Of a stretch of DNA of 64,000 nt, positions 4,493 through 53,400 are shown piece by piece. Source of the stretch: Enterobacter sp. BIGb0383 (GTDB taxonomy: Bacteria; Pseudomonadota; Gammaproteobacteria; Enterobacterales; Enterobacteriaceae); the NCBI RefSeq assembly GCF_003751845.1, contig NZ_RJKQ01000002.1, positions 1,460,668-1,524,667 of the forward strand. Direction: 5' to 3'. Both the position numbers and the translations under genes were made by a program. Position 1 is the stretch's first letter. Each line of letters begins with the position of its first letter. The notes under the pieces are model-generated. The model worked only from the letters and a program-made list of their open reading frames with translations, had not been told where the DNA came from and ran no database searches.

Positions 4493-5572
4493 TCAGTCGA
4501 GATAGTGCATCGTGACCCTTGAGGTCAGACGGGTAATCAATTCATAGGCGCTGACGCCGGTAACGCTGGCAATACGCTCAACGGGCAACCCTTCACCCCA
4601 CATCACCACCGGATCGCCGGGGTTATCCTGCGACTCAGGCCCCAGGTCGACGCAAATCATATCCATCGCCACGCGACCGACAATGGGCACTTCCCGACCG
4701 TTGACCAGTACCGGCGTTCCCGACGGTGTCGCACGCGGATAGCCGTCACCGTAGCCCATTGCCACGACGCCAAGCCGCGTGTCACGGTCGCTCTCCCAGG
4801 TGCCGCCATAGCCCACCGGTTCCCCGGCAAGATGTTCGCGCACGGCAATCAGGCTGGAGGTAAGAGACATTGCTGGCTGGAAGCCGAATTCGCTACCCCA
4901 GGGATGGCCGTCCAGCGGCGAGACGCCGTAAAGAATAATCCCCGGGCGCACCCAGTCGTAGTGGGACTGAGGCCACAGGAGGATCCCGCCCGATGCAGCA
5001 ATAGAGCGCATCCCGGGTTTGCCGTCGGTAAAGCTACTGAAAATATCCAGCTGTTTTTCGGTCGCGCCACATTCCGGCTCGTCGGCCCGGGCAAAGTGGC
5101 TCACCACGTTGACCGGCTGACGCACGTTTTTGCACTGGCACAGGCGCTGATAAAACGCTTCGGCCTGGTCCGGGCGCACGCCGAGACGGTGCATACCGGT
5201 GTCGAGTTTCATCCAGACGGTAACCGGCTGACGTAAATCCGCCGCTTCCAGCGCTACCAGCTGTTCAGGACTGTGCACAGCGGTCTGAAGTTGATTATCG
5301 ACGAGCGTTGGCAGATCGGCGGCGTTAAAGAAACCTTCCAGCAGTAAAATCGGCTGGGTAATTCCCCCTTCTCTTAAACGAAGGGCTTCTTCCAGGCGGG
5401 CAACGCCAAAGGCGTCAGCGTCGGGGAGCGTTCGCGCGGTCTCCAGCAGACCGTGTCCATAGGCGTTCGCTTTCACCACTGCAACCAGTTTGCTGGCGGG
5501 CGCCAGCTCACGCAGACGCTGCAGGTTGTGTCGCAGAGCGCGGCGGTTGATTACGACAGTTGCCGCTTGCAT
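4493..5572 (-). CDS. alr: Alanine racemase (biosynthetic)
   Basis: 359 aa, [25 protein letters not shown]... near-identical to E. coli Alr; PLP site [10 protein letters not shown]. Confidence 0.95.
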
Positions 5573-5724
5573 TTATATTCCTTAGATCCTTAATAAAGAA
5601 TCGCCAAAATCATTCACGTTGCAGGAAGGCGACAAGCCCGCGAATCCCCGGGAGCTTAGCCAACTAAGTGACCGGGGTGAGCGGGCGCAGTCAACGCACC
5701 TGCGGCGTGAAGGATGAAGGCGAT

Positions 5725-7131
5725 TTATTCGTCGTCGTATTGGGGGCCCGCATAATTATCAAAACGCGACCACTGACCGTTAAAGGTCAGACGCACCGTA
5801 CCAATCGGGCCGTTACGCTGCTTGCCGAGGATAATTTCGGCAATGCCTTTCAGGTCGCTGTTCTCGTGATAAACCTCATCACGATAGATAAACATAATTA
5901 AGTCGGCATCCTGCTCGATGGAGCCGGACTCACGCAGGTCCGAGTTGACCGGGCGTTTATCGGCGCGCTGTTCAAGGGAGCGGTTAAGCTGGGACAGCGC
6001 CACCACCGGCACGTGTAGCTCTTTGGCCAGCGCCTTCAGAGAACGGGAAATTTCGGCAATTTCCAGGGTACGGTTGTCCGACAGGGACGGCACGCGCATC
6101 AGCTGAAGGTAGTCGATCATAATCAGACCGATGCCGCCGTGTTCACGGGCAATACGCCGCGCACGGGAACGCACTTCCGTTGGCGTCAGGCCGGAGGAGT
6201 CATCAATATAGATATTACGTTTTTCCAGCAGGATCCCCATGGTGCCTGAGATCCGCGCCCAGTCCTCATCATCCAGCTGACCGGTACGAATACGGGTCTG
6301 ATCGACACGCGACAGGGACGCCAGGCAGCGCATCATAATCTGCTCGGAGGGCATCTCAAGACTGAAAATAAGAACCGGCTTATCCTGCAACATCGCCGCA
6401 TTTTCGACGAGGTTCATCGCAAATGTCGTTTTACCCATCGACGGACGCGCGGCGACGATAATCAAATCCGACGGCTGAAGGCCCGCGGTTTTTTTGTTGA
6501 GATCGTCATAGCCCGTGTTCACGCCCGTGACCCCGTCGTGGGGCTGCTGGAACAGCTGCTCAATACGCGAGACGGTCGCATCCAGCACATCGGCAATATT
6601 CTTCGGGCCTTCGTCTTTATTGGCGCGGCTCTCGGCGATTTTAAAGACGCGGGATTCAGCGAGGTCCAGCAGTTCATCGCTGTTGCGGCCCTGCGGGTCG
6701 AAACCGGCTTCGGCAATCTCATTGGCCACCGAGATCATATCGCGTACAACCGCACGTTCGCGCACGATATCGGCGTAAGCGCTGATATTCGCTGCACTTG
6801 GCGTATTTTTCGATAACTCCGCCAGATAGGCGAAGCCGCCGACGGCATCGAGCTGCCCCTGACGCTCCAGCGATTCCGCGAGGGTAATCAGGTCAATCGG
6901 ACTCCCCGATTCCTGCAGGCGCGCCATTTCCGTGAAGATATGACGGTGTGGGCGAGCGTAAAAGTCTTCCGTCACCACGCGCTCGGCGACGTCGTCCCAG
7001 CGTTGGTTATCCAGCATTAAACCGCCCAACACCGACTGTTCCGCTTCAATCGAGTGCGGGGGCATTTTCATCCCTTCGAACTGGCGCTCGCGGGGTTCAG
7101 TCTGTTTGTTGAAGGGTTTATTTCCTGCCAT
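5725..7131 (-). CDS. dnaB: Replicative DNA helicase DnaB
   Basis: 468 aa; Walker A GKTTFAMNL; >90% identical by eye to E. coli DnaB. Confidence 0.97.
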   Translation of the reverse strand: MAGNKPFNKQTEPRERQFEGMKMPPHSIEAEQSVLGGLMLDNQRWDDVAERVVTEDFYARPHRHIFTEMARLQESGSPIDLITLAESLERQGQLDAVGGFAYLAELSKNTPSAANISAYADIVRERAVVRDMISVANEIAEAGFDPQGRNSDELLDLAESRVFKIAESRANKDEGPKNIADVLDATVSRIEQLFQQPHDGVTGVNTGYDDLNKKTAGLQPSDLIIVAARPSMGKTTFAMNLVENAAMLQDKPVLIFSLEMPSEQIMMRCLASLSRVDQTRIRTGQLDDEDWARISGTMGILLEKRNIYIDDSSGLTPTEVRSRARRIAREHGGIGLIMIDYLQLMRVPSLSDNRTLEIAEISRSLKALAKELHVPVVALSQLNRSLEQRADKRPVNSDLRESGSIEQDADLIMFIYRDEVYHENSDLKGIAEIILGKQRNGPIGTVRLTFNGQWSRFDNYAGPQYDDE

Positions 7132-37966: not shown

Positions 37967-39328
37967 ATGAATCACCCAGCTTCATCACTTGTCGTCGCCA
38001 AATTCGGCGGCACCAGCGTGGCCGATTTTGCTGCCATGAACCACAGCGCTAATGTCGTGCTTGCCGATCCGAATACCCGTCTGGTCGTTCTGTCCGCCTC
38101 TGCGGGCATCACCAACCTGCTGGTTGCTCTCGCGGAAGGCCCGGAAGCCACCGAGCGCTTTGTAAAGCTCGACGCCATCCGAAAAATTCAGTTCGATATT
38201 CTTGAGCGGCTCTCTAATCCGAACGTGATCCGCGAAGAGATCGAACGCCTGCTGGAAAATATCACCACCCTGGCAGAAGCCGCATCGCTGGCCACCTCCA
38301 CCGCCCTGACGGATGAACTGGTGAGCCACGGCGAACTGATGTCGACTCTGCTGTTTGTTGAGGTGCTGCGCGAGCGCGGCGTTCAGGCCCAGTGGTTTGA
38401 CGTGCGTAAAGTGATGCGCACCAGCGATCGCTTTGGCCGTGCCGAACCGGACATCGCCGCTCTTTCCGAGCTGGCAACCCAGCAGTTGGCCCCGCGTCTG
38501 GACGAAGGCATGGTGATTACCCAGGGCTTTATCGGCAGCGAAGCCAAAGGCCGCACCACCACCCTTGGCCGCGGCGGCAGCGATTACACCGCCGCCCTGC
38601 TTGGCGAAGCCCTGCACGCCAGCCGCGTGGATATCTGGACCGACGTACCGGGCATCTACACCACCGACCCGCGCGTGGTACCGGCAGCAAAACGCATTGA
38701 TGAAATCGCCTTTGAAGAAGCCGCCGAAATGGCGACCTTCGGCGCGAAAGTTCTGCACCCGGCAACCCTGTTACCGGCCGTACGCAGCGATATTCCGGTG
38801 TTTGTTGGCTCCAGCAAAGATCCGAAAGCCGGTGGCACGATGGTCTGTAATAAAACCGCCAATCCGCCGCTGTTCCGCGCCCTGGCCCTGCGTCGCCGCC
38901 AGACCCTGCTGACGCTGCACAGCCTGAATATGCTGCACTCCCGTGGTTTCCTGGCGGAGGTGTTCGGCATCCTGGCGCGACACAATATCTCCGTGGATCT
39001 GATCACGACCTCTGAAGTGAGCGTGGCGCTGACCCTCGATACGACGGGTTCCACCTCCACTGGCGATACCCTGTTGACCCAGGCGCTGCTCACGGAGCTC
39101 TCTTCGCTTTGCCGCGTTGAAGTGGAAGAGAATCTGGCCCTGATCGCCCTGATTGGCAACAACCTGTCAAAAGCCTGCGGCGTGGGTAAAGAGGTCTTTG
39201 GCGTGCTGGATCCGTTTAATATCCGCATGATTTGCTACGGTGCCTCCAGCTATAACCTCTGTTTCCTGGTACCGGGAACGGAAGCCGAGCAGGTGGTTCA
39301 GACGCTGCACCACAATCTGTTCGAGTAA
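37967..39328 (+). CDS. lysC: Lysine-sensitive aspartokinase III
   Basis: 453 aa from ATG 37967 (MNHPASSLVVAKFGGTSVADFAAMNHSANVVL...) collinear with E. coli LysC; C-terminus ...VQTLHHNLFE. Confidence 0.95.
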   Translation: MNHPASSLVVAKFGGTSVADFAAMNHSANVVLADPNTRLVVLSASAGITNLLVALAEGPEATERFVKLDAIRKIQFDILERLSNPNVIREEIERLLENITTLAEAASLATSTALTDELVSHGELMSTLLFVEVLRERGVQAQWFDVRKVMRTSDRFGRAEPDIAALSELATQQLAPRLDEGMVITQGFIGSEAKGRTTTLGRGGSDYTAALLGEALHASRVDIWTDVPGIYTTDPRVVPAAKRIDEIAFEEAAEMATFGAKVLHPATLLPAVRSDIPVFVGSSKDPKAGGTMVCNKTANPPLFRALALRRRQTLLTLHSLNMLHSRGFLAEVFGILARHNISVDLITTSEVSVALTLDTTGSTSTGDTLLTQALLTELSSLCRVEVEENLALIALIGNNLSKACGVGKEVFGVLDPFNIRMICYGASSYNLCFLVPGTEAEQVVQTLHHNLFE

Positions 39329-39336
39329 AAGAAAAG

Positions 39337-39368
39337 GCCCGGCAGCAGAAGCTTTCCGGGCCTTTTTT
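39337..39368. terminator. Bidirectional terminator between lysC and the rtcB-operon end
   Basis: AAAAGGCCCGG-...-CCGGGCCTTTTTT hairpin flanked by A/T runs on both sides. Confidence 0.75.
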
Positions 39369-40152
39369 ACGCCATCACCGTCTGATACAGCAGATGGTCT
39401 AGCTCCCTGACGTTTCCGCTGCGGCTCTCAGGCAGGGCATCCGCCACTTCCCCTCGTGCCAGCTCTGCCTGGATAAACGCGTGCAGCAGCGGCCTGCGCG
39501 GACCGTACTGTGCTTCCCCGGCTTTCTGCTTTAAAACCAGCAATGCATCTATCTCAGCCCGCAGAGGTGCGGTCAGATCGCTACCGTCAAGCAGCGTGGC
39601 GAAACGCATCGGCGGCATTCCTTTCCCGGCCTCTATCCAGCGAACCGCCAGCAGCGGACGCAGCACGTAGAAATACTTCTTCAGCCGCACCTCTGCATCC
39701 TGCAGGTAGCCACGAAAGTTCTTTTTCGCCATCGAGTAGTAGTGCCAGCGCGCCCTGACCGGTGAAAACCAGTGCGGAACCTGAGCACGCAGCGCGGCCA
39801 GTACCGCATCGTCCTGCTGATAGACCACCGGCGAATCCAGCCACTCGATCAGCGTCGGGTTCGCGCCTTTCAGCAGCCCCAGCGCCTTGCGCCACTCCCA
39901 GCCGCAGACGTCCAGTTCATCGTCTATCGGCAGTTCGATCACATCCCGCTGCGGCTCCACGCGCAGATACCACTTCGGCGGATGTACATATAAAAACCGC
40001 ACGTCGTAGTCGCTATCCGGGGAGGCGAACCCCCAGCCGCGACTGCCGGACTCGCAGGCGTAGAGCACCCTCACGCCATATTTTTTCTCGACCTCCTGCA
40101 ATGCCTGCCTGACGCGTGCGCGCATGGTGGCATCAACACTCTCATATTCCAT
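39367..40152 (-). CDS. Pol-beta-superfamily nucleotidyltransferase (COG3541-like), 261 aa, last gene of the rtcB operon
   Basis: Minimal NTase motif ACESGSRGWGFASPDSDYDVRFLY (GS...D.D); ATG 40152 with AAGGA RBS 5 nt after the rtcB stop; occupies the position of rtcA. Confidence 0.6.
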   Translation of the reverse strand: MEYESVDATMRARVRQALQEVEKKYGVRVLYACESGSRGWGFASPDSDYDVRFLYVHPPKWYLRVEPQRDVIELPIDDELDVCGWEWRKALGLLKGANPTLIEWLDSPVVYQQDDAVLAALRAQVPHWFSPVRARWHYYSMAKKNFRGYLQDAEVRLKKYFYVLRPLLAVRWIEAGKGMPPMRFATLLDGSDLTAPLRAEIDALLVLKQKAGEAQYGPRRPLLHAFIQAELARGEVADALPESRSGNVRELDHLLYQTVMA

Positions 40153-40157
40153 TTCTC

Positions 40158-41387
40158 TTATCCTTTTACACACACCACCTGGCGCAGGGTATGGACCACT
40201 TCGACCAGCGCTGACTGGGCCGTCATCACGGCATCAATGTCTTTGTACGCCATCGGGATCTCATCGATCACGTCGCTGTCTTTACGGCACTCTACGTGCG
40301 CGGTGGCGCGGATCTGATCTTCAACGGTAAAACGTTTTTTCGCGGCGGTACGGCTCATAGTACGTCCCGCACCGTGGCTGCAGGAACAGAAGCTCTCTTC
40401 GTTGCCAAGCCCGCGCACAATAAAGCTTTTCGCGCCCATCGAACCGGGAATAATCCCCATCTGCCCTTTCTGCGCCGAGACCGCGCCTTTACGCGTGACC
40501 AGGACTTCTTCACCAAAGTGCGTCTCTTTCTGGACATAGTTATGGTGGCAATTCACCGCTTCCTGCTGCGTCATAAAGGGCTTAGTGACAATTTTTGATA
40601 GCGCGGCCAATACCCGCGACATCATCACTTCCCGATTATGACGGGCGAAATCCTGTGCCCAATCAACGGCTTCCAGATAGTCGTCATAGTGCAGACTGCC
40701 CTCCTGGAAGTACGCCAGATTTCTGTCCGGCAGGTTGGCAATATGCTGCTGCATATCCTGCTGAGCAAGGGTGATAAACACGTTGCCAATCGCATTACCT
40801 ACGCCACGCGACCCGCTGTGGAGCATCACCCATACCCGCTGCTGCTCATCCAGACAGACTTCAATAAAGTGGTTACCGGTTCCCAGCGTTCCCAGATGCT
40901 GGTGATTATTGGTCTTCAGCAGCTGCGGATATTTATCCGTCAGGCGTTTGAAACGCGGGGCCAGCTGCGCCCAGTGACTGTCCACGATATCTGGCGGCGT
41001 TTCCCACGAACCTTTATCCCGCTTCGAACGGTTCACCGAGCGCCCGTGCGGCACCGCCTGCTCAATCGCGCTACGCAGTCCGCTCAGGTTATCGGGCAGA
41101 TCCCCGGCCAGCAGGGAGGTGCGCACGGCAATCATTCCGCAGCCGATATCCACACCCACCGCCGCAGGGATAATGGCCCCTTTGGTCGGGATCACGCTGC
41201 CGATGGTTGAACCTTTACCGAGATGCACATCCGGCATCACCGCCAGATGTTTGAAGATAAAGGGCATTTTTGCCGTATTCAGAAGCTGCTCCCGCGCCTC
41301 CGGCTCCACGGGCACGCCGTGGGTCCACATTTTTACCGGGGCGCTGTTTTCCTGCGCCATCAGCTGATATTCGTTATGCGCCATCAT
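40158..41387 (-). CDS. rtcB: RNA-splicing ligase RtcB
   Basis: 409 aa from ATG 41387; ENSAPVKMWTHGVPVEPEAREQLLNTAKMPFIFKHLAVMPDVHLGKGSTIGSVIPTKGAIIPAAVGVDIGCGM... ~80% identical to E. coli RtcB; AGGAG RBS. Confidence 0.95.
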   Translation of the reverse strand: MMAHNEYQLMAQENSAPVKMWTHGVPVEPEAREQLLNTAKMPFIFKHLAVMPDVHLGKGSTIGSVIPTKGAIIPAAVGVDIGCGMIAVRTSLLAGDLPDNLSGLRSAIEQAVPHGRSVNRSKRDKGSWETPPDIVDSHWAQLAPRFKRLTDKYPQLLKTNNHQHLGTLGTGNHFIEVCLDEQQRVWVMLHSGSRGVGNAIGNVFITLAQQDMQQHIANLPDRNLAYFQEGSLHYDDYLEAVDWAQDFARHNREVMMSRVLAALSKIVTKPFMTQQEAVNCHHNYVQKETHFGEEVLVTRKGAVSAQKGQMGIIPGSMGAKSFIVRGLGNEESFCSCSHGAGRTMSRTAAKKRFTVEDQIRATAHVECRKDSDVIDEIPMAYKDIDAVMTAQSALVEVVHTLRQVVCVKG

Positions 41388-42516
41388 GCGCTCCTTTAAT
41401 GTTAACAAGACCGTGCAGAACCTGATCCAGACCACCGAAGACCGAGATCTTATCGATGCGTTCCGCAACACGCTCCAGAGTTTCCAGTTCTTTCAGTCGC
41501 AGCGCGACCGGGTTGCTTTCCATCACTTTCGCCGTATTCAGCAGCGAACGGGTCGCGGCCGTCTCTTCCCGGCGGCGGATCACATTTGCCTGCGCCGATT
41601 TTTCCGCCTCCACTAACCGCGACAGGATGGTTTTCATCTCGCCGGGCAGGATGACGTCTTTCACACCCAGCGACGCCACTTCAATACCAAAGGCGGCCAT
41701 ACGTTCTGCAACCTGCACGCTCACCACTTCGTCGATAATTTGCTTATCTTCCAGCAGCTCATCAAGCGTACGCGTGCCCACCGCTTCGCGCAGCGCAAAC
41801 TGCAGCTCGCGATAAAGATGGTCCAGCGGTTTGCTCAGTTGAGCAAAGGCGCTCAGCACGTCGGTATAGCGCCAGTTCGCCGCCAGGTTCAGCCGCAGGG
41901 TCACTTTATCTTTGGTCAGGATCTCCTGACCGCTGACTTCCAGCACCTGCAGGCGCAGATCCACCACCTCAGCCTCGACCAGATGGTTCACCTTCCAGTA
42001 ACCGCTCAGACCTGCCGACAGCAGCGCCTGGGTTTCACCATCCACCTTCAGGACACCGACGTGCCATGCCGGAACCTGAACCGTCAGAATAGTATCGCGG
42101 CCTTTGATACTATTACCGCGCTTCGGCTGCAGTACCGCATTGAGGATCTCAGCGGGTACGCTCACCTCACGCGTATCCAGACGGACCAGCTTTAATGTCT
42201 CATCCGCTTTCCAGTACAGGCGACGGGTCGAAGGTGGCAGGATCTCCTGCAATATGCCGTTGCTGTACAGGGCGCCCGCTTCGTTATCTGTCATATCGGC
42301 CACCAGGCAGTATTGCTCAATCCAGCCCGGCTGGAAGCGACGCAGATACTCAGCCAGTCCGGTTTCCACTTCGCTGCCGTCGAGGTTCACCACCCGCACT
42401 TTCGGCACGCTAAACCATGAAAGACGATGTTCACCGCTTTCCAGAACCTGATAGTAATCGCCCTCTTTTGCCAGTAAGCCCAGCTGACCTTTTCGTATTG
42501 TGATTTTCTTTGTCAT
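41374..42516 (-). CDS. SPFH/band-7 (stomatin/flotillin/HflC-like) domain protein without a predicted TM segment, 380 aa, first gene of the rtcB operon
   Basis: SPFH core ...DKVTLRLNLAANWRYTDVLSAFAQL... and C-terminal coiled-coil EAEKSAQANVIRRREETAATRSLLN...; ATG 42516 with AAGGA RBS preferred over GTG 42549; 3' end overlaps the rtcB start by 14 nt. Confidence 0.65.
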   Translation of the reverse strand: MTKKITIRKGQLGLLAKEGDYYQVLESGEHRLSWFSVPKVRVVNLDGSEVETGLAEYLRRFQPGWIEQYCLVADMTDNEAGALYSNGILQEILPPSTRRLYWKADETLKLVRLDTREVSVPAEILNAVLQPKRGNSIKGRDTILTVQVPAWHVGVLKVDGETQALLSAGLSGYWKVNHLVEAEVVDLRLQVLEVSGQEILTKDKVTLRLNLAANWRYTDVLSAFAQLSKPLDHLYRELQFALREAVGTRTLDELLEDKQIIDEVVSVQVAERMAAFGIEVASLGVKDVILPGEMKTILSRLVEAEKSAQANVIRRREETAATRSLLNTAKVMESNPVALRLKELETLERVAERIDKISVFGGLDQVLHGLVNIKGAHDGA

Positions 42517-42622
42517 TCTGTTTTCCTTAATTTTTGCCTTAACGACCACGGATGCAGGGGCGAAGCCGCAGGGGAAACAACGTTTTGCCTGCGACCCGGC
42601 ATCATTACCGGCGGTCGTGAGA

Positions 42623-42647
42623 GGTCATCGTTAACGGCCCGATGACC
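42623..42647 (-). other. Perfect 8-bp palindromic hairpin in the rtcB-operon leader
   Basis: GGTCATCG-TTAACGGCC-CGATGACC. Confidence 0.5.
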
Positions 42648-42674
42648 GGGTACACCTGTTTATCTCTTTGGATA

Positions 42675-42725
42675 GAGGTGCGCGAATACGGGATTCGAAC
42701 CCGTGGAAACCGACTTTTCGCAAAA
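42675..42725 (-). ncRNA. tRNA-like minihelix (acceptor-stem mimic plus canonical T-arm) in the leader of the SPFH-rtcB operon; Y-RNA-like element
   Basis: Minus-strand 5'-tGCGAAAAgtcggtttccACGGGTTCGAATCCCGTATTCGCgCACC: canonical 5-bp T-stem with 7-nt T-loop TTCGAAT, flanked by a ~7-bp acceptor-like helix (GCGAA/TTCGC) but no D or anticodon arms; lies between the sigma54 promoter and the first ORF. Confidence 0.5.
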
Positions 42726-42832
42726 TGTCTTACCGCTGACGGAACGCCCCCCGGAAAACGGCCTCTGCCGTTCCTGGTGCGCCGGCGGGGTGTGTTACCC
42801 CCTGCTATTCCAGCGTGCTGACGGGAGAGTTA

Positions 42833-42850
42833 TTGCCAGAAGCGTGCCAG
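42833..42850 (-). promoter_or_regulatory. Sigma-54 (-24/-12) promoter driving the SPFH-rtcB-NTase operon
   Basis: Minus-strand cTGGCACGCTTCTGGCAa vs consensus TGGCACG-N4-TTGCW (GG and GC correctly spaced); divergent from the rtcR enhancer-binding-protein gene, same arrangement as E. coli rtcR/rtcBA. Confidence 0.75.
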
Positions 42851-42984
42851 AATTGATAAACAACAGGATTAATTTTTATATAATTGATAATTAATGATTT
42901 TATTTTTAACGCATTGATCTGTCGTTGTCAGGCAACGCTTTATTTTTTATCTTTAGTTATCGCAATTTATCTTCAGGGATAAAA
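42851..42984. promoter_or_regulatory. AT-rich rtcR-rtcB intergenic control region (candidate RtcR UAS / IHF site / rtcR promoter)
   Basis: Direct repeats AATTGATAA (42851 and 42882), inverted repeat CGTTGTCAGGCAACG (~42935-42949); AT-rich unlike flanks. Confidence 0.35.
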
Positions 42985-44571
42985 ATGAAACGTCGCGTAG
43001 TGATTGGCGTACTGGGAACGGTGCTGGATAAGCGTGGAAAACGGCATAATCGCTTCAAAAAATGGCGGCCGACCGTCGGCCTGTGTCAGCAGCCCGATTT
43101 TCCCGTCGACCGTCTTGAGCTTTTGCATCAGCCGCGGGATGCAGGCCTGGCCCGTCAGCTTGCAGAGGATATTGACCAGGTGTCGCCGCAGACCAGCGTC
43201 TGCACGCATTCGGTCGAGATTCACGATCCCTGGGATTTCGAAGAGGTGTACGCTGCCTTTCTTGATTTCGCCAGCCGTTATCCGTTCGATACGGAAAACG
43301 AGGAGTACCTGGTCCATATCACCACCGGGACACACGTCGCGCAGATTTGCTGGTTCCTACTGACCGAAGCCCGCTATCTTCCCGCCAGCCTGCTGCAAAC
43401 CGGCCCCGCACCAAAAGATGCAGCCGACGAGGCCATTGCCGCCGGAAGCTGCTCGGTGATTGACCTTGATTTAAGCCGCTACGCCACCCTGACCAGCCGC
43501 TTTCAACGTGAACAGCAGCAGTCGGTATCGTTTCTTAAATCGGGGATTGATACCCGCAACGCGACCTTTAACCGTCTGATCGACCAGATAGAGCGCGTGG
43601 CGCTACGCTCTACCGCGCCGATATTGCTGACCGGCCCGACCGGTGCGGGCAAATCTTTCCTTGCAAAGCGCATCTTCCAGCTGCGCCAGTCCCGACATCA
43701 GGTTCAGGGTAAACTGGTCGCGGTAAACTGCGCCACCCTGCGTGGGGATAACGCGATGTCGACCCTGTTTGGTCACGTGAAAGGCGCGTTTACCGGCGCG
43801 CTCCAGGCTCGTACAGGACTGCTGCGCGAGGCGGATGGCGGGGTGTTATTTCTCGATGAGATCGCCGAGCTGGGCCTCGACGAGCAGGCGATGCTGCTCA
43901 AGGCCATCGAAGAGAAAACCTTTTTCCCGTTTGGCTCGGATAAAGAAGTCCACAGCGATTTTCAGCTGATCGCAGGGACGCATCGAAATATGCCGCAGTG
44001 GGTCGAAGAAGGCCGTTTCAGGGAGGATTTGTACGCCCGCATCAATATGTGGACCTTCGCGCTGCCGGGACTGGCAGAGCGGCGGGAAGATATCGCCCCG
44101 AATATCGAGTACGAGCTTGAACGCTATGCCCGGGAACAGCAGACGCAAATTCGCTTTGATAAGGGCGCTCGCGAGCGCTATCTGGCCTTTGCCTGCTCGC
44201 CCCATGCCGCATGGAGAGGTAATTTCCGGGAACTGAGTACGTCTATTGCCCGAATGGCGACGATGGCGGAACAGGGACGTATCAATGACGACCTGGTCGA
44301 CGAGGAGCTGCAGCGCTTAACGTATCACTGGCAGGCGTCGCCTGAGCAAACCACCCTGCCGGTGGATCTGAGTACGCTCGATCTTTTTGACCGCCACCAG
44401 CTTGAAACGGTGGTGGCCGTCTGTCGACGCTGCCATACATTGTCGGAGGCCGGGCGTGAGCTGTTTTCCGTCTCACGGCAGAAGAAAGCAAACCCCAATG
44501 ATGCCGATCGTCTGCGCAAGTATCTCGCCCGTTTTGGCCTGAGCTGGGAGAGCGTGCGCGGCGCAACATAA
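42985..44571 (+). CDS. rtcR: RtcR sigma-54-dependent transcriptional activator (CARF sensor domain - AAA+ - HTH)
   Basis: 528 aa from ATG 42985 (MKRRVVIGVLGTVLDKRGKRHNRFKKWRPTVGLCQQ...) collinear with E. coli RtcR; Walker A GPTGAGKSFLA; GAFTGA sigma54-interaction motif; C-terminal DADRLRKYLARFGL. Confidence 0.93.
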   Translation: MKRRVVIGVLGTVLDKRGKRHNRFKKWRPTVGLCQQPDFPVDRLELLHQPRDAGLARQLAEDIDQVSPQTSVCTHSVEIHDPWDFEEVYAAFLDFASRYPFDTENEEYLVHITTGTHVAQICWFLLTEARYLPASLLQTGPAPKDAADEAIAAGSCSVIDLDLSRYATLTSRFQREQQQSVSFLKSGIDTRNATFNRLIDQIERVALRSTAPILLTGPTGAGKSFLAKRIFQLRQSRHQVQGKLVAVNCATLRGDNAMSTLFGHVKGAFTGALQARTGLLREADGGVLFLDEIAELGLDEQAMLLKAIEEKTFFPFGSDKEVHSDFQLIAGTHRNMPQWVEEGRFREDLYARINMWTFALPGLAERREDIAPNIEYELERYAREQQTQIRFDKGARERYLAFACSPHAAWRGNFRELSTSIARMATMAEQGRINDDLVDEELQRLTYHWQASPEQTTLPVDLSTLDLFDRHQLETVVAVCRRCHTLSEAGRELFSVSRQKKANPNDADRLRKYLARFGLSWESVRGAT

Positions 44572-50499: not shown

Positions 50500-53400
50500 T
50501 TAGTCCGCATCGTATCCCAGGTTCGGTGCCAGCCAGCGCTCAACTTCCGCCACCGGCATGCCTTTACGTCGGGCATAGTCTTCCACCTGATCGCGCTGGA
50601 GCTGGGCGACGGCAAAATACTTGCTGTCAGGATGGCTGAAGTACCAGCCGGAAACGGAGGCTCCCGGCCACATGGCGAAGGATTCCGTCAGTTTCATGCC
50701 CGTATGGGTTTCCACATCCAGAAGCTGCCAGATAGTGCCTTTTTCCGTGTGCTCCGGGCAGGCCGGATAGCCCGGTGCCGGTCGGATGCCCTGGTAGTTT
50801 TCGCGGATCAGCTCTTCGTTACTCAGGTTCTCATTCGGCGAGAAGCCCCAGTAAACTTTACGCACGCGCTCGTGCAGATACTCGGCAAAGGCTTCCGCCA
50901 GACGGTCGGCTACGGCTTTGACCATGATCTTATTGTAGTCATCGTGCTGCGCGTCATACGCCTCGGCCAGCGCGTCCTCTTCCAGCCCGCCGGTAACGGC
51001 AAAGGCGCCGATATAGTCAGCTTTGCCGCTCAGTTTCGGGGCGACAAAATCGGCCAGACAGTAGTTGGCAAAGCCGGTTTTCTCCGTCTGCTGGCGCAGA
51101 TGATGGCTGACCGTCAGTATCTGTGTCCGGGTTTCGTCGCGGTAGATCTCCACGTCATCCCCCACCCGGTTAGCCGGGAATAAGCCCACCACGCCACGTG
51201 GGTTCAGCAGCCGTTCTGCGCTCAGCTTATCGAGCATCTCGTTGGCATCCTGGAACAGGCGCTTCGCCTCTTCCCCGACAACCTCATCTTCAAGAATGCG
51301 CGGATACTTCCCGGCCAGCGACCAGGTCATAAAGAACGGGGTCCAGTCGATATAGTTCCGCAGCGTCTCGATACTGGCCGTGATTTCCTGCACGCCGAGG
51401 CGATGGGCGACCGGCGGGGTGTAGCTCGCCCAGTCAAAGGCCAGATCGTTATCACGTGCCGCCTGCAGCGTCACCGGCGGCGTGCGCGGTTTTTTACGGC
51501 CATGCTGGATACGTACGGTTTCATACTCTTTACGGGTGCGGGCAACAAACTCGTCGTGCTGGGTGTCGGAAAGCAGCGCTGACACCACGCCAACGGTGCG
51601 CGAGGCGTTCTGCACATAGACCGTCGGCCCGCTGTAGTTCTGCTCGATTTTCACCGCCGTATGGGCTTTTGAGGTGGTCGCGCCGCCAATCAGCAGGGGA
51701 ATCGTAAAGCCCTGACGCTCCATCTCTTTGGCCACGTTGACCATTTCGTCCAGCGACGGAGTGATAAGCCCGGACAGGCCAATCAGATCGGCATTCTCTT
51801 CGCGGGCGGTTTTGAGGATTTTTTCCGCCGGGACCATCACGCCAAGATCGATAATTTCGTAGTTATTACACTGCAGCACCACGCCAACAATATTCTTACC
51901 GATATCGTGAACATCGCCCTTCACGGTGGCGATCACCATCTTGCCGTTGGAGGAGCCTTTCTCTTTGCTGGCTTCAATATAGGGCTGCAGATACGCCACC
52001 GCCTGCTTCATCACGCGGGCGGATTTCACCACCTGCGGCAGGAACATTTTCCCTTCGCCGAACAGGTCGCCAACCACGTTCATCCCGTCCATCAGCGGGC
52101 CTTCAATGACCTGGATCGGTCGGTCAGCCTGTTGGCGCGCCTCTTCCGTATCCAGCTCGATAAATTCGGTGATCCCTTTCACCAGCGAGTATTCCAGACG
52201 TTTTCTGACGTCCCAGCTACGCCACTCGGCCATCTGGGCATTCGCACCGTCGTCAGCCTTGCTACCGCGGTATTTTTCCGCCAGTTCCAGCAGCCGCTCG
52301 GTGCCGTCGTCGCGACGGTTAAGGACCACATCCTCAACCGCATCGCGCAGTTCCTGCGGCAGGTCGTCATAGATCGCCAGCTGACCGGCGTTAACGATCC
52401 CCATATCCATCCCGTTCCGGATGGCGTAGTAGAGGAATACCGCGTGAATCGCTTCACGAACCGGATCGTTCCCACGGAAGGAGAAGGAGACGTTGGATAC
52501 GCCGCCGGAGATCATCGCGTGCGGCAGTTCGCGTTTGATATCTTCACAGGCGCCGATAAAGTCCTGGGCGTAGTTGTTATGCTCTTCAATCCCGGTCGCG
52601 ACGGCAAAGATATTCGGGTCGAAGATAATATCTTCCGGCGGGAAACCGACGTCCTGAGTCAGAATATTGTACGCCCGACGACAGATCTCAATCTTGCGCT
52701 CGCGGGTATCGGCCTGGCCCACTTCATCAAAGGCCATCACCACCATCGCCGCGCCGTAGCGCCGCACTTTTTTCGCATGTTCGATAAAGAGGTCAACGCC
52801 CTCTTTCATCGAAATGGAGTTCACGATGCCTTTGCCCTGAATGCATTTCAGGCCCTTTTCGATGACTTCCCATTTCGAGGAGTCGATCATAATCGGCACG
52901 CGGGCGATATCCGGCTCACCGGCAATCAGGTTGAGGAAACGCACCATCGCCGCTTCGGCGTCGAGCATCCCCTCATCCATATTGATATCGATGATCTGCG
53001 CGCCGCTTTCGACCTGCTGCAACGCCACATCCAGCGCTTCGCTGTATTTCTCTTCTTTGATTAGGCGCTTAAATTTGGCCGAACCGGTAACGTTAGTACG
53101 CTCCCCGACGTTCACAAACAGGCTGTCCGCGCCGATATTCAGCGGCTCCAGCCCGGCGAGCCGACAGGCGACCGGCAGTTCAGGCAGCTGACGCGGCGGC
53201 AATCCGTCCACCGCCCGGCTCATCGCCGCAATATGTTCCGGCGTGGTGCCGCAGCAGCCGCCGACGATATTAAGGAACCCGGCTTCCGCCCACTCGCGGA
53301 TCTGCGCCGCCATGGTGTCGGCATCCAGATCGTATTCACCGAAGGCGTTTGGCAGACCGGCGTTCGGGTGTGCGGTCACGTAGCATTCGGCGATACGCGA

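Follow-up and report, generated by a model that had tools for sequence, protein, structure and literature searches.

The rtc locus and its leader

A 64-kb stretch of Enterobacter sp. BIGb0383 DNA, referred to here as the window, contains an RNA-repair operon preceded by ~310 nucleotides without a long open reading frame (ORF). Within this leader lies a segment that we infer to be tRNA-derived, a 'top half' in which a T-arm and a short acceptor-like stem are stacked. In the 19 Enterobacteriaceae leaders compared, the T-loop hairpin is kept universally and the acceptor is lineage-specific.

The gene order is rtcR, transcribed divergently, followed by a sigma54 promoter, the leader, slipin, rtcB, and rlaP, and the locus is bounded by lysC and panS. 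This agrees with the placement of the element by an earlier sequence-only reading, which put it in the leader of an RtcR/sigma54-controlled rtcB operon. Coordinates are those of the window, and the leader, slipin, rtcB, and rlaP are all on the minus strand. The features of the locus are as follows.

39367..40173, minus strand, RlaP nucleotidyltransferase (Pfam RlaP, E = 5e-94)
40158..41471, minus strand, RtcB RNA ligase (Pfam RtcB, E = 7e-132); the listed ORF overlaps the slipin gene
41374..42516, minus strand, slipin / SPFH protein (Band_7) of 380 amino acids (Pfam Band_7, E = 2e-25), with a beta-rich N-terminal region of ~190 amino acids
42514..42528, minus strand, Shine-Dalgarno sequence AAGGA (42528-42524) and slipin start codon (42516-42514)
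42849-42834, minus strand, sigma54-type promoter TGGCAC-N5-TGGCA, read directly and divergent from rtcR, with the -24 GG at 42848-42847 and the -12 GC at 42836-42835
42985..44571, plus strand, RtcR, a sigma54 activator with a CARF domain (NCBIfam RNA_repair_RtcR equivalog, 838 bits)

The slipin gene, starting at 42516, is the first ORF of the operon, and the true rtcB start is probably further downstream than that of the listed ORF. The sigma54 promoter is almost invariant across the 19 leaders and is found at the equivalent site in many RtcR-linked loci. An intrinsic terminator or terminator-like site was sought in the leader and none was found; by layout, the leader is therefore co-transcribed with the operon.

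The minihelix

The sequence GCGAAAA-GTCGGTTTCC-ACGGG-TTCGAAT-CCCGT-ATTCGCG-C-ACC is present at 42721-42677 on the minus strand. It begins 114 nucleotides past the -12 GC of the promoter, close to the ~100 nucleotides first given for this tRNA-like string. Its parts are listed below.

42677..42722, minus strand, putative tRNA-derived minihelix, from the minimum-free-energy fold of the segment: GCGAA (42721-42717), 12-nucleotide linker (42716-42705), T-arm (42704-42688), A42687, UUCGC (42686-42682), and tail GCACC (42681-42677)
42688..42704, minus strand, T-arm ACGGG-UUCGAAU-CCCGU, the core that appears to be under selection: stem 42704-42700 / 42692-42688, 7-nucleotide loop 42699-42693

The T-arm has the consensus form, a 5-base-pair stem with a 7-nucleotide UUCRANY-type loop, and the canonical T-stem-loop described from the sequence alone is exact at 42704-42688. 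It matches positions 46-63 of the Rfam tRNA model (RF00005) locally, with 14.2 bits against a gathering score of 29 bits. A search of Rfam 15 (E <= 10; 8 kb, then the 421-nucleotide leader alone) returned, besides chance matches, only this local match. Matches of the leader to riboswitch and cis-regulatory models were all far under their gathering scores and were judged to be chance.

The acceptor-like helix is composed of five Watson-Crick pairs, GCGAA/UUCGC, with a possible additional U42722·G42681 wobble and an A·A mismatch beside the T stem. The element had been described as carrying a 7-bp acceptor helix; the five pairs stand, and GCGAAAA and ATTCGCG are not complementary over seven positions. 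The discriminator-like C with an ACC end also falls away, as the tail is G-CACC and not N-CCA. The segment thus lacks the 7-bp acceptor, discriminator, and (N)CCA of a tRNA. It is not a four-arm cloverleaf either. ARAGORN finds no tRNA in the window, and just 12 nucleotides separate the acceptor-like 5' strand from the T stem, which bears out the description of a mimic without D or anticodon arms.

Structure and conservation of the leader in Enterobacteriaceae

Of more than 585 slipin loci, 80 (one per species, identified by slipin homologs with 43-84% identity) were compared, together with one E. coli locus. The 19 Enterobacteriaceae leaders were aligned from promoter to start codon. The remaining features of the leader, all on the minus strand, are listed from 5' to 3' of the transcript.

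42781..42814, minus strand, module 1, a hairpin with a 5-nucleotide bulge on the 5' side, followed by CACCA; outer stem GCUG/CGGC, inner stem GC-A-GGGG/CCCCGC
42753..42774, minus strand, P2 hairpin GGAACGG-cagagg-CCGUU(UU)CC, read by eye
42736..42746, minus strand, conserved junction CGUUCCGUCAG, an invariant block in the 19 leaders, aligned by eye with AUGCCGCCGUCAG of other lineages (Providencia, Burkholderia, Pseudomonas)
42653..42680, minus strand, variable hairpin CACCU...AGGUG 3' of the minihelix, from per-sequence folds
42623..42647, minus strand, 8-bp hairpin GGUCAUCG/CGAUGACC (DNA GGTCATCG/CGATGACC), stems 42647-42640 / 42630-42623, z = -2.8
42544..42616, minus strand, 3' domain, a long irregular hairpin with conserved loops GGCAAAA, UUCCCC, and CUUCG, z = -3.4

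The T-loop is the conserved part of the minihelix, because it is invariant in 19 of 19 leaders while the acceptor is present in just six. The invariant T-loop block, GGTTCGA-TCC, is 11 nucleotides long and is the longest invariant run of the transcribed part; flanking columns average 65% identity. The T stem covaries. Its inner three pairs are always formed, and one of them alternates between G-C and A-U. The six leaders with the acceptor-like helix are those of the window, Superficieibacter, Franconibacter, Siccibacter, and two Mangrovibacter species. The other 13, or 'short', leaders lack a 17-nucleotide segment carrying the acceptor 5' strand, and contain a UUCAUU/AAUGAA-type local hairpin directly 3' of the T-arm.

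A proposed 39-pair structure of the leader is 95.1% paired across the alignment, compared with at most 51% after the 3' partners are slid by 1-3 columns. Double changes occur at 20 of its pairs, and the observed values were reached by 0 of 500 shuffles on four of five measures and by 5 of 500 on the fifth. Because the 39-pair structure, the double changes, and the hairpins hold across the 19 leaders, the ~310-nucleotide leader is a genuine covarying structured RNA, and one without an Rfam match. The folding energy of the whole leader (z = -1.3) is uninformative alone; the 8-bp hairpin and the 3' domain do exceed chance folding.

Module 1 (helices 1 and 2) is 95-99% paired with double changes at four pairs. 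Its stems are replaced by GAAGG/CCUUC in Franconibacter and UGAAC/GUUCA in Providencia, and a comparable hairpin exists in Pseudomonas. For the P2 region, RNAalifold prefers GGAACG/CGUUCC (CGUUCC at 42746-42741). K. oxytoca contains a compensatory GAAAC/GUCUUUC at P2, and the site is occupied in Providencia, Proteus, and Pseudomonas by a long hairpin whose sequence is unrelated. The K. oxytoca change and these other genera favor P2, though both pairings are possible.

No pairing partner was found for the junction CGUUCCGUCAG or for the copies of CCGUCAG. This heptamer occurs twice in the leader, at 42824-42818 near the predicted transcript start and at 42742-42736 before the putative tRNA-derived module, and both copies fall within conserved blocks of the alignment.

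The perfect 8-bp palindromic hairpin of the sequence-only reading is exact at 42647-42623. A stable stem-loop is found at this site in 19 of 19 leaders, mostly as a single hairpin and mostly with different stem sequences. The further helices downstream, also pointed out at the start, are real structure, paired with double changes across the 19 leaders. They form the 3' domain (helices 5-7), in which 13 of the 19 pairs have double changes and pairing is 95-99%. This domain ends ~15 nucleotides before the Shine-Dalgarno sequence and shows no obvious pairing with it. The covariance model R1 of the 3' domain, built from Enterobacteriaceae only, gives one match in the window and is found at the same position in Providencia, Proteus, Gilliamella, and Orbus (Orbales).

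Two plus-strand ORFs, 42642-42821 and 42703-42894, were considered as genes and ruled out by the 17-nucleotide indel between orthologs and by the paired compensatory changes.

Distribution beyond Enterobacteriaceae

Of the loci, 79 have enough sequence 5' of the slipin gene to be scored, and in 77 of these the 11-mer GGTTCGANTCC precedes slipin on the same strand. They span Enterobacteriaceae to Betaproteobacteria and include one cyanobacterium. Counted over the first 81 loci, the T-loop motif is present in 78. A check of orthologous leaders for conservation and covariation had been proposed, and it comes out positive: the T-loop is invariant in the 19 leaders, the motif recurs in 77 of 79 loci, and there is some covariation. 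Locus L083 (3055-3500; Pseudomonas sp., CP087173.1) contains rtcR, slipin, rtcB, and rlaP and no GGTTCGANTCC. It keeps module 1 and P2, and the slot is filled by another hairpin, GGUCUCGAG...CUCGAACC.

The Morganellaceae have the same layout with other stems around the T-arm, GUGAU/AUCAC in Providencia and GGUG/CACC in Proteus. The acceptor plus T-arm architecture with other stem sequences is also found in L042, L084, L024, and Proteus. Armless minihelices with 12- to 16-nucleotide linkers occur in separate lineages (Undibacterium, Burkholderia, Providencia, and Proteus). A joint RNAalifold fold of 11 armless minihelices from different lineages yields the T stem alone, as their acceptor strands do not align in register. 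The 5'-domain model R2, built from Enterobacteriaceae only, gives full-length matches at the expected site in Proteus, Providencia, Stenoxybacter, Undibacterium, Burkholderia, and others (E = 3e-6 to 7e-3), with part of the score supplied by the generic T-arm. A second, weak R2 match in the window, at 50936-51031 on the plus strand (13.5 bits, E = 0.04), is probably noise.

In the distant relatives the element is one or two full cloverleaves, called as tRNA by ARAGORN and Rfam, and Beta- and Gammaproteobacteria usually contain two T-arms 62-77 nucleotides apart. The tRNA-likes are downstream of sigma54 promoters. Their anticodons vary by species, and many have anticodon loops of 6 or 8 nucleotides (ARAGORN 'tRNA-???'). 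In the first unit, a G+C-rich acceptor with a CCA end is common (GGCGAGU/ACUCGCC-A-CCA). The T-arm and 3' strand of the window element, GGGTTCGAATCCCGTATTCGCGCACC, resemble the 3' end of the first betaproteobacterial tRNA-like (GGGTTCGATTCCCGTACTCGCCACCA, L049).

P. nitroreducens and P. anguilliseptica have rtcR followed divergently by two tRNA-likes, slipin, zf_Tbcl, and rtcB, with rlaP and rtcA further on in P. nitroreducens, where the two tRNA-likes abut like array tRNAs. The small zf_Tbcl (PF13451) gene is located between slipin and rtcB (L085 4178-4576, L086 4208-4570) in the Pseudomonas loci with tRNA-likes, not in L083. It is absent from the operon of the window.

In many genomes and metagenome-assembled genomes (MAGs) of Beta- and Gammaproteobacteria, the slipin gene is located within or beside 9-28 tRNA genes on the same strand, and the tRNA-likes are the last units before the mRNA. 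Such arrays were identified in L040, L049-L052, L058, L059, L061, L063, L066, L067, L073, L076, L077, and L080, at ~0-4000 and 5100-6500 in locus coordinates. L063 has 18 tRNAs upstream and 10 downstream of the slipin gene, and some of these loci have a distant RtcB (28-29% identity) a few kb off. No paper describing this linkage of slipin to tRNA arrays was found in the literature.

In E. coli and many MAGs, slipin has neither rtcB nor rtcR beside it and is nonetheless accompanied by the T-arm RNA. In E. coli FDAARGOS_1285 (L001 5040-7285), a sigma54-type promoter, a leader with the T-arm, slipin, and an RlaP-like gene lie between yjbD and a prophage, and no rtcR or rtcB adjoins them. If active, this operon would have to use the RtcR of the rtcBA locus in trans. 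Leader matches are present in 1632 of 5426 complete E. coli genomes (~30%).

An integrase att-site remnant was considered as the origin of the element and ruled out, as the element holds one position inside the leader across phyla.

The slipin protein

A protein recorded for Enterobacter sp. BIGb0383 matches the slipin at 100% identity. The AlphaFold2 model of the slipin (mean pLDDT 83) has three 5-stranded beta units, an SPFH core, and a long helix. In Foldseek, Major Vault Protein chains align longest, over 430-478 columns compared with ~210-280 for stomatin, HflK/C, prohibitin, and erlin. The predicted model suggests a vault-like architecture. Orthologs in L027, L028, L030, L031, L033, and L035 (P0136, P0153, and others; 520-590 amino acids) are ~150 residues longer. 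Their N-terminal part gives a second, weaker tblastn match to the query, which suggests that the N-terminal beta region may be duplicated. In the Burkholderia locus L084, the slipin ORF apparently starts ~430 nucleotides upstream of the called gene.

The slipin could be a soluble, cage-forming, dedicated partner of the T-arm RNA akin to Major Vault Protein, its beta-repeat units leading into an SPFH 'shoulder' and a long helix. A vault-like or Ro/Y-like ribonucleoprotein would then catch tRNAs or their fragments by the T-arm or elbow and present them to RtcB and RlaP, and the tRNA arrays flanking slipin would be its cargo or a replacement set. We consider this proposal doubtful.

Comparison with known systems

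The known element most like the relatives described above is PA4581.1 ('tRNA-Arg4') of P. aeruginosa, located between rtcR and PA4582-PA4585. It lacks a CCA and has an unusual D loop (PMC13637947, PMC8743555), and its expression has been detected by qRT-PCR and RNA-seq (PMC13637947, PMC8743555). The P. aeruginosa rtc locus also encodes an SPFH protein, PaFlo8 (PMC13086221). PA4581.1 thus occupies the same slot as the window element, between divergent rtcR and an SPFH/slipin gene (PMC13637947, PMC13086221). The window element has this type of placement, being on the operon strand, between rtcR and slipin, and downstream of the sigma54 promoter. The tRNA-likes of L084-L086 are likewise on the operon strand, downstream of a sigma54 promoter, and have T-arm sequence in common with the window. 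PA4581.1, compared here by description, differs in being a full cloverleaf called by tRNA finders, whereas the window element lacks D and anticodon arms. L084-L086 (Pseudomonas, Burkholderia) differ in having two cloverleaves in tandem in place of one armless element.

In Anabaena, mutation of trcR strongly raises expression of the slipin gene alr0740, and TrcR binds the promoter of alr0739, from which alr0739-alr0740 is expressed (PMC10272220). The same repressor has rtcB and a tRNA array under its control (PMC10272220, PMC8421152). tRNA genes, RtcB, and a slipin-family protein are thus joined in one stress response (PMC8421152, PMC10272220), a likeness to the slipin genes found within 9-28-tRNA arrays in many distant loci of the comparison set. 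The Anabaena tRNAs are complete, presumably decoding, and under TrcR, in contrast to a single, putative armless remnant in an mRNA leader.

Partial tRNA shapes within longer transcripts are read by tRNA-specific proteins in the thrS operator, in MALAT1 mascRNA, and in acceptor/T-arm minihelix substrates, where they serve autoregulation or end formation. The likeness of the thrS operator and mascRNA to the window element is one of principle only, with no sequence relationship, and the thrS operator mimics an anticodon arm where the window element has a T-arm.

YrlA is a tRNA-like Y RNA encoded in the Salmonella rsr-yrlBA-rtcBA operon, and its T-arm is modified by tRNA enzymes (PMC4201824). Like the window element, it mimics a tRNA without decoding, has a canonical T-arm, and belongs to an RNA-repair operon under RtcR/sigma54; interaction with tRNA-recognising proteins has been proposed for it (PMC4201824, PMC7790460). 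YrlA is a discrete RNA of ~100 nucleotides with a Ro-binding stem and the motif GNCGAA(N)G, and it is always beside rsr; the window element has none of these properties. The earlier label 'Y-RNA-like' is accordingly dropped. No rsr is found in the operon or its flanks (lysC, rtcR, panS), the rest of the 64-kb window not having been screened for a TROVE-domain gene, and GNCGAA(N)G (definition from PMC4201824) is absent from the 316-nucleotide leader. Nor are the arms permuted. YrlA has the order T, acceptor-like stem-loop, D, whereas the window has acceptor 5' strand, T-arm, acceptor 3' strand, and the cloverleaf relatives have D before T. The suggested Rfam check for Y RNA-like models returned no Y RNA or YrlA match at E <= 10, leaving the 14-bit tRNA T-arm match.

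No description of the enterobacterial leader was found in the literature, Burroughs & Aravind 2016 lying outside that check.

Interpretation of the leader element

From its position and its cloverleaf relatives, we infer that the element is an in-place reduced descendant of one or more tRNA-like genes of the rtc locus, located between rtcR and slipin. Reduction would have removed the D and anticodon arms and, in most Enterobacteriaceae, the acceptor strand as well, with selection acting on the T-loop hairpin.

Our favored reading of its role, to which we give an even chance, is that the minihelix is a tRNA-mimicking handle for tRNA-recognising proteins. The leader would be transcribed from the RtcR/sigma54 promoter together with slipin-rtcB-rlaP. 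The first candidate binders are the operon products slipin, RtcB, and RlaP, the last of which adds 1-2 nucleotides to RNA 3'-OH ends (PMC12776372), and the T-arm enzymes TruB and TrmA would almost certainly bind it too. RtcR senses damaged tRNA or its fragments (PMC7790460), and through the handle the repair machinery would be expressed, processed, or assembled in step with the response to tRNA damage. The handle could either autoregulate the operon by mimicry as part of the leader, in cis, or act in the manner of a Y RNA once excised. Because the RNA follows slipin without rtcB or rtcR nearby, its partner is more likely slipin or the leader's own fold than RtcR.

Several results weigh against this reading. 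The folding energy of the 48-nucleotide minihelix is ordinary (z = -0.16), and a complementary run of at least six positions (G·U allowed) upstream of the T-arm occurs in 53% of shuffles. GGTTCGANTCC has one copy in the window, with 0.12 expected and at least one copy in 10 of 100 shuffles. An automatic acceptor-stem scan with shuffled controls was powerless for stems of 5-6 bp. As the minihelix is at chance level in shuffles, a single sequence proves nothing, and the comparison across genomes decides. There, the acceptor-like helix is absent from 13 of the 19 leaders, including those of E. coli, Citrobacter, and Klebsiella, and the sole compensatory change for it among the six is GCAAA/UUUGC in Siccibacter. 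The segment GUC-AGCGGUAA-GAC (42740-42727) could be read as a D-like arm; it has a C·A mismatch in four of the six 'long' leaders, and the GG of its loop is not conserved. The T-loop motif itself is missing from L083 (Pseudomonas), L025 (Providencia), and L045 (a betaproteobacterial MAG), and is therefore dispensable in some backgrounds. In P. aeruginosa, the level of tRNA-Arg4 is not raised on induction of the Rtc proteins (PMC13637947), a poor fit to simple co-transcription.

A processing or stability signal is a less likely role, though one with some weight. The minihelix would be cut by RNase P at the 5' side and RNase E or Z at the 3' side, freeing a small tRNA-like RNA and setting the 5' end and half-life of the mRNA, a 'tRNA punctuation' inherited from arrays. 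The many distant slipin genes in or after arrays, with tRNA-likes last before the mRNA, are consistent with this, as are the abutting tRNA-likes of P. nitroreducens. The YrlA of M. smegmatis is cut by RNase P and gains a CCA (PMC4201824), while that of Salmonella, with a stem of less than 7 bp, is uncut by RNase P (PMC4201824). The acceptor-like helix of the window has 5-6 bp, not 7, and no RCCA tail. Since the T-loop is invariant even in the 13 leaders without the acceptor 5' strand, processing of the RNase P type cannot be a function shared by all leaders. It also leaves the conserved 5' and 3' domains unexplained.

It is improbable that the element works as a decoy or in feedback. An induced tRNA-like RNA would soak up ribotoxins, or would yield 2',3'-cyclic-phosphate fragments that feed the CARF domain of RtcR. 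RtcR is activated by damaged tRNA fragments, and a competitive-inhibitor role has been proposed for YrlA (PMC7790460), as has a 'sponge' role for the Anabaena array tRNAs (PMC8421152). The cloverleaf relatives have hypervariable anticodon loops, often of abnormal size, as expected under conflict or for a non-cleavable mimic. However, the enterobacterial version has no anticodon arm, the usual target, and its conserved part is the T-loop. One copy of the RNA per operon transcript would also be a weak sponge.

T-loop motifs are docking modules in RNase P RNA, rRNA, and T-box leaders. By this precedent, the leader might be a large cis-regulatory RNA, riboswitch-like or a sensor, in which the T-loop makes tertiary contact with a different segment and binds no tRNA-specific protein. 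The leader is a covarying, multi-domain RNA with the conserved unpaired blocks CGUUCCGUCAG, GCAGUACC-like, GGCAAAA, UUCCCC, and CUUCG, in keeping with this reading. It matches no Rfam family, however, the Shine-Dalgarno sequence is not obviously sequestered by the 3' domain, and there is no intrinsic terminator. The T-arm of the relatives is in a complete cloverleaf, where its own D-loop would be the partner. We regard tertiary docking as a poor prospect.

A non-functional relic, a tRNA pseudogene decaying in an intergenic region, is very improbable. Arms are lost stepwise from the cloverleaves of the relatives to the minihelix of the window and the T-arm alone of most Enterobacteriaceae. The motif is wholly lost in a few lineages, and ARAGORN finds no tRNA in the window. 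Decay of a tRNA gene fragment, which the sequence-only reading had named as a possible refutation, is right insofar as the element is apparently a cut-down tRNA-like gene. It would have been reduced in place, however, and the T-loop is under strict selection, with an 11-nucleotide block invariant against the 65% mean identity of flanking columns. Stem pairs show compensatory changes, and across phyla 77 of 79 loci have the element in the same place and orientation. The window element is not a stray pseudogene.

A YrlA-like Y RNA that binds Ro60/Rsr encoded elsewhere, already disfavored by the absence of rsr from the operon and its flanks and of GNCGAA(N)G, permuted arms, and an Rfam Y RNA match from the leader, noted above, also lacks the terminal Ro-binding stem and is barely tenable, the setting in an RtcR/sigma54 RNA-repair operon and the tRNA-like T-arm being what it shares with YrlA (PMC4201824, PMC7790460).

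It was already known that RtcR operons respond to damaged tRNAs, that Salmonella has tRNA-like Y RNAs in one such operon, and that Pseudomonas has an odd 'tRNA-Arg4' at the same spot. The enterobacterial case joins these facts: whether or not RtcB and RtcR are present, the slipin gene is accompanied by an apparently tRNA-derived RNA, in forms from full cloverleaves beside tRNA arrays to a bare T-arm. This suggests that the T-arm is the functional kernel and that the uncharacterised slipin is linked to tRNA. The comparison also delimits an unannotated structured leader RNA, at least ~300 nucleotides long. In addition to E. coli, where it occurs in the ~30% of complete genomes given above, this leader is found in many Citrobacter, Klebsiella, Enterobacter, Proteus, and Providencia species. 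The role of SPFH proteins in RNA repair, the substrates of RlaP and RtcB, and the recurrence of tRNA mimics in RNA-repair operons are thereby opened to simple genetics in hosts that are easy to work with.

Additional observations

No slipin homolog was found in phages. The plasmid matches to slipin are very large records of 0.4-4.8 Mb, two of them chromosome-sized. A strong stem-loop with a U-tract is present at 39298-39370 on the plus strand, between the convergent lysC and rlaP genes, and is the source of weak Rfam matches to STnc40, Thr_leader, and STnc250. It is probably the shared terminator of lysC and rlaP.

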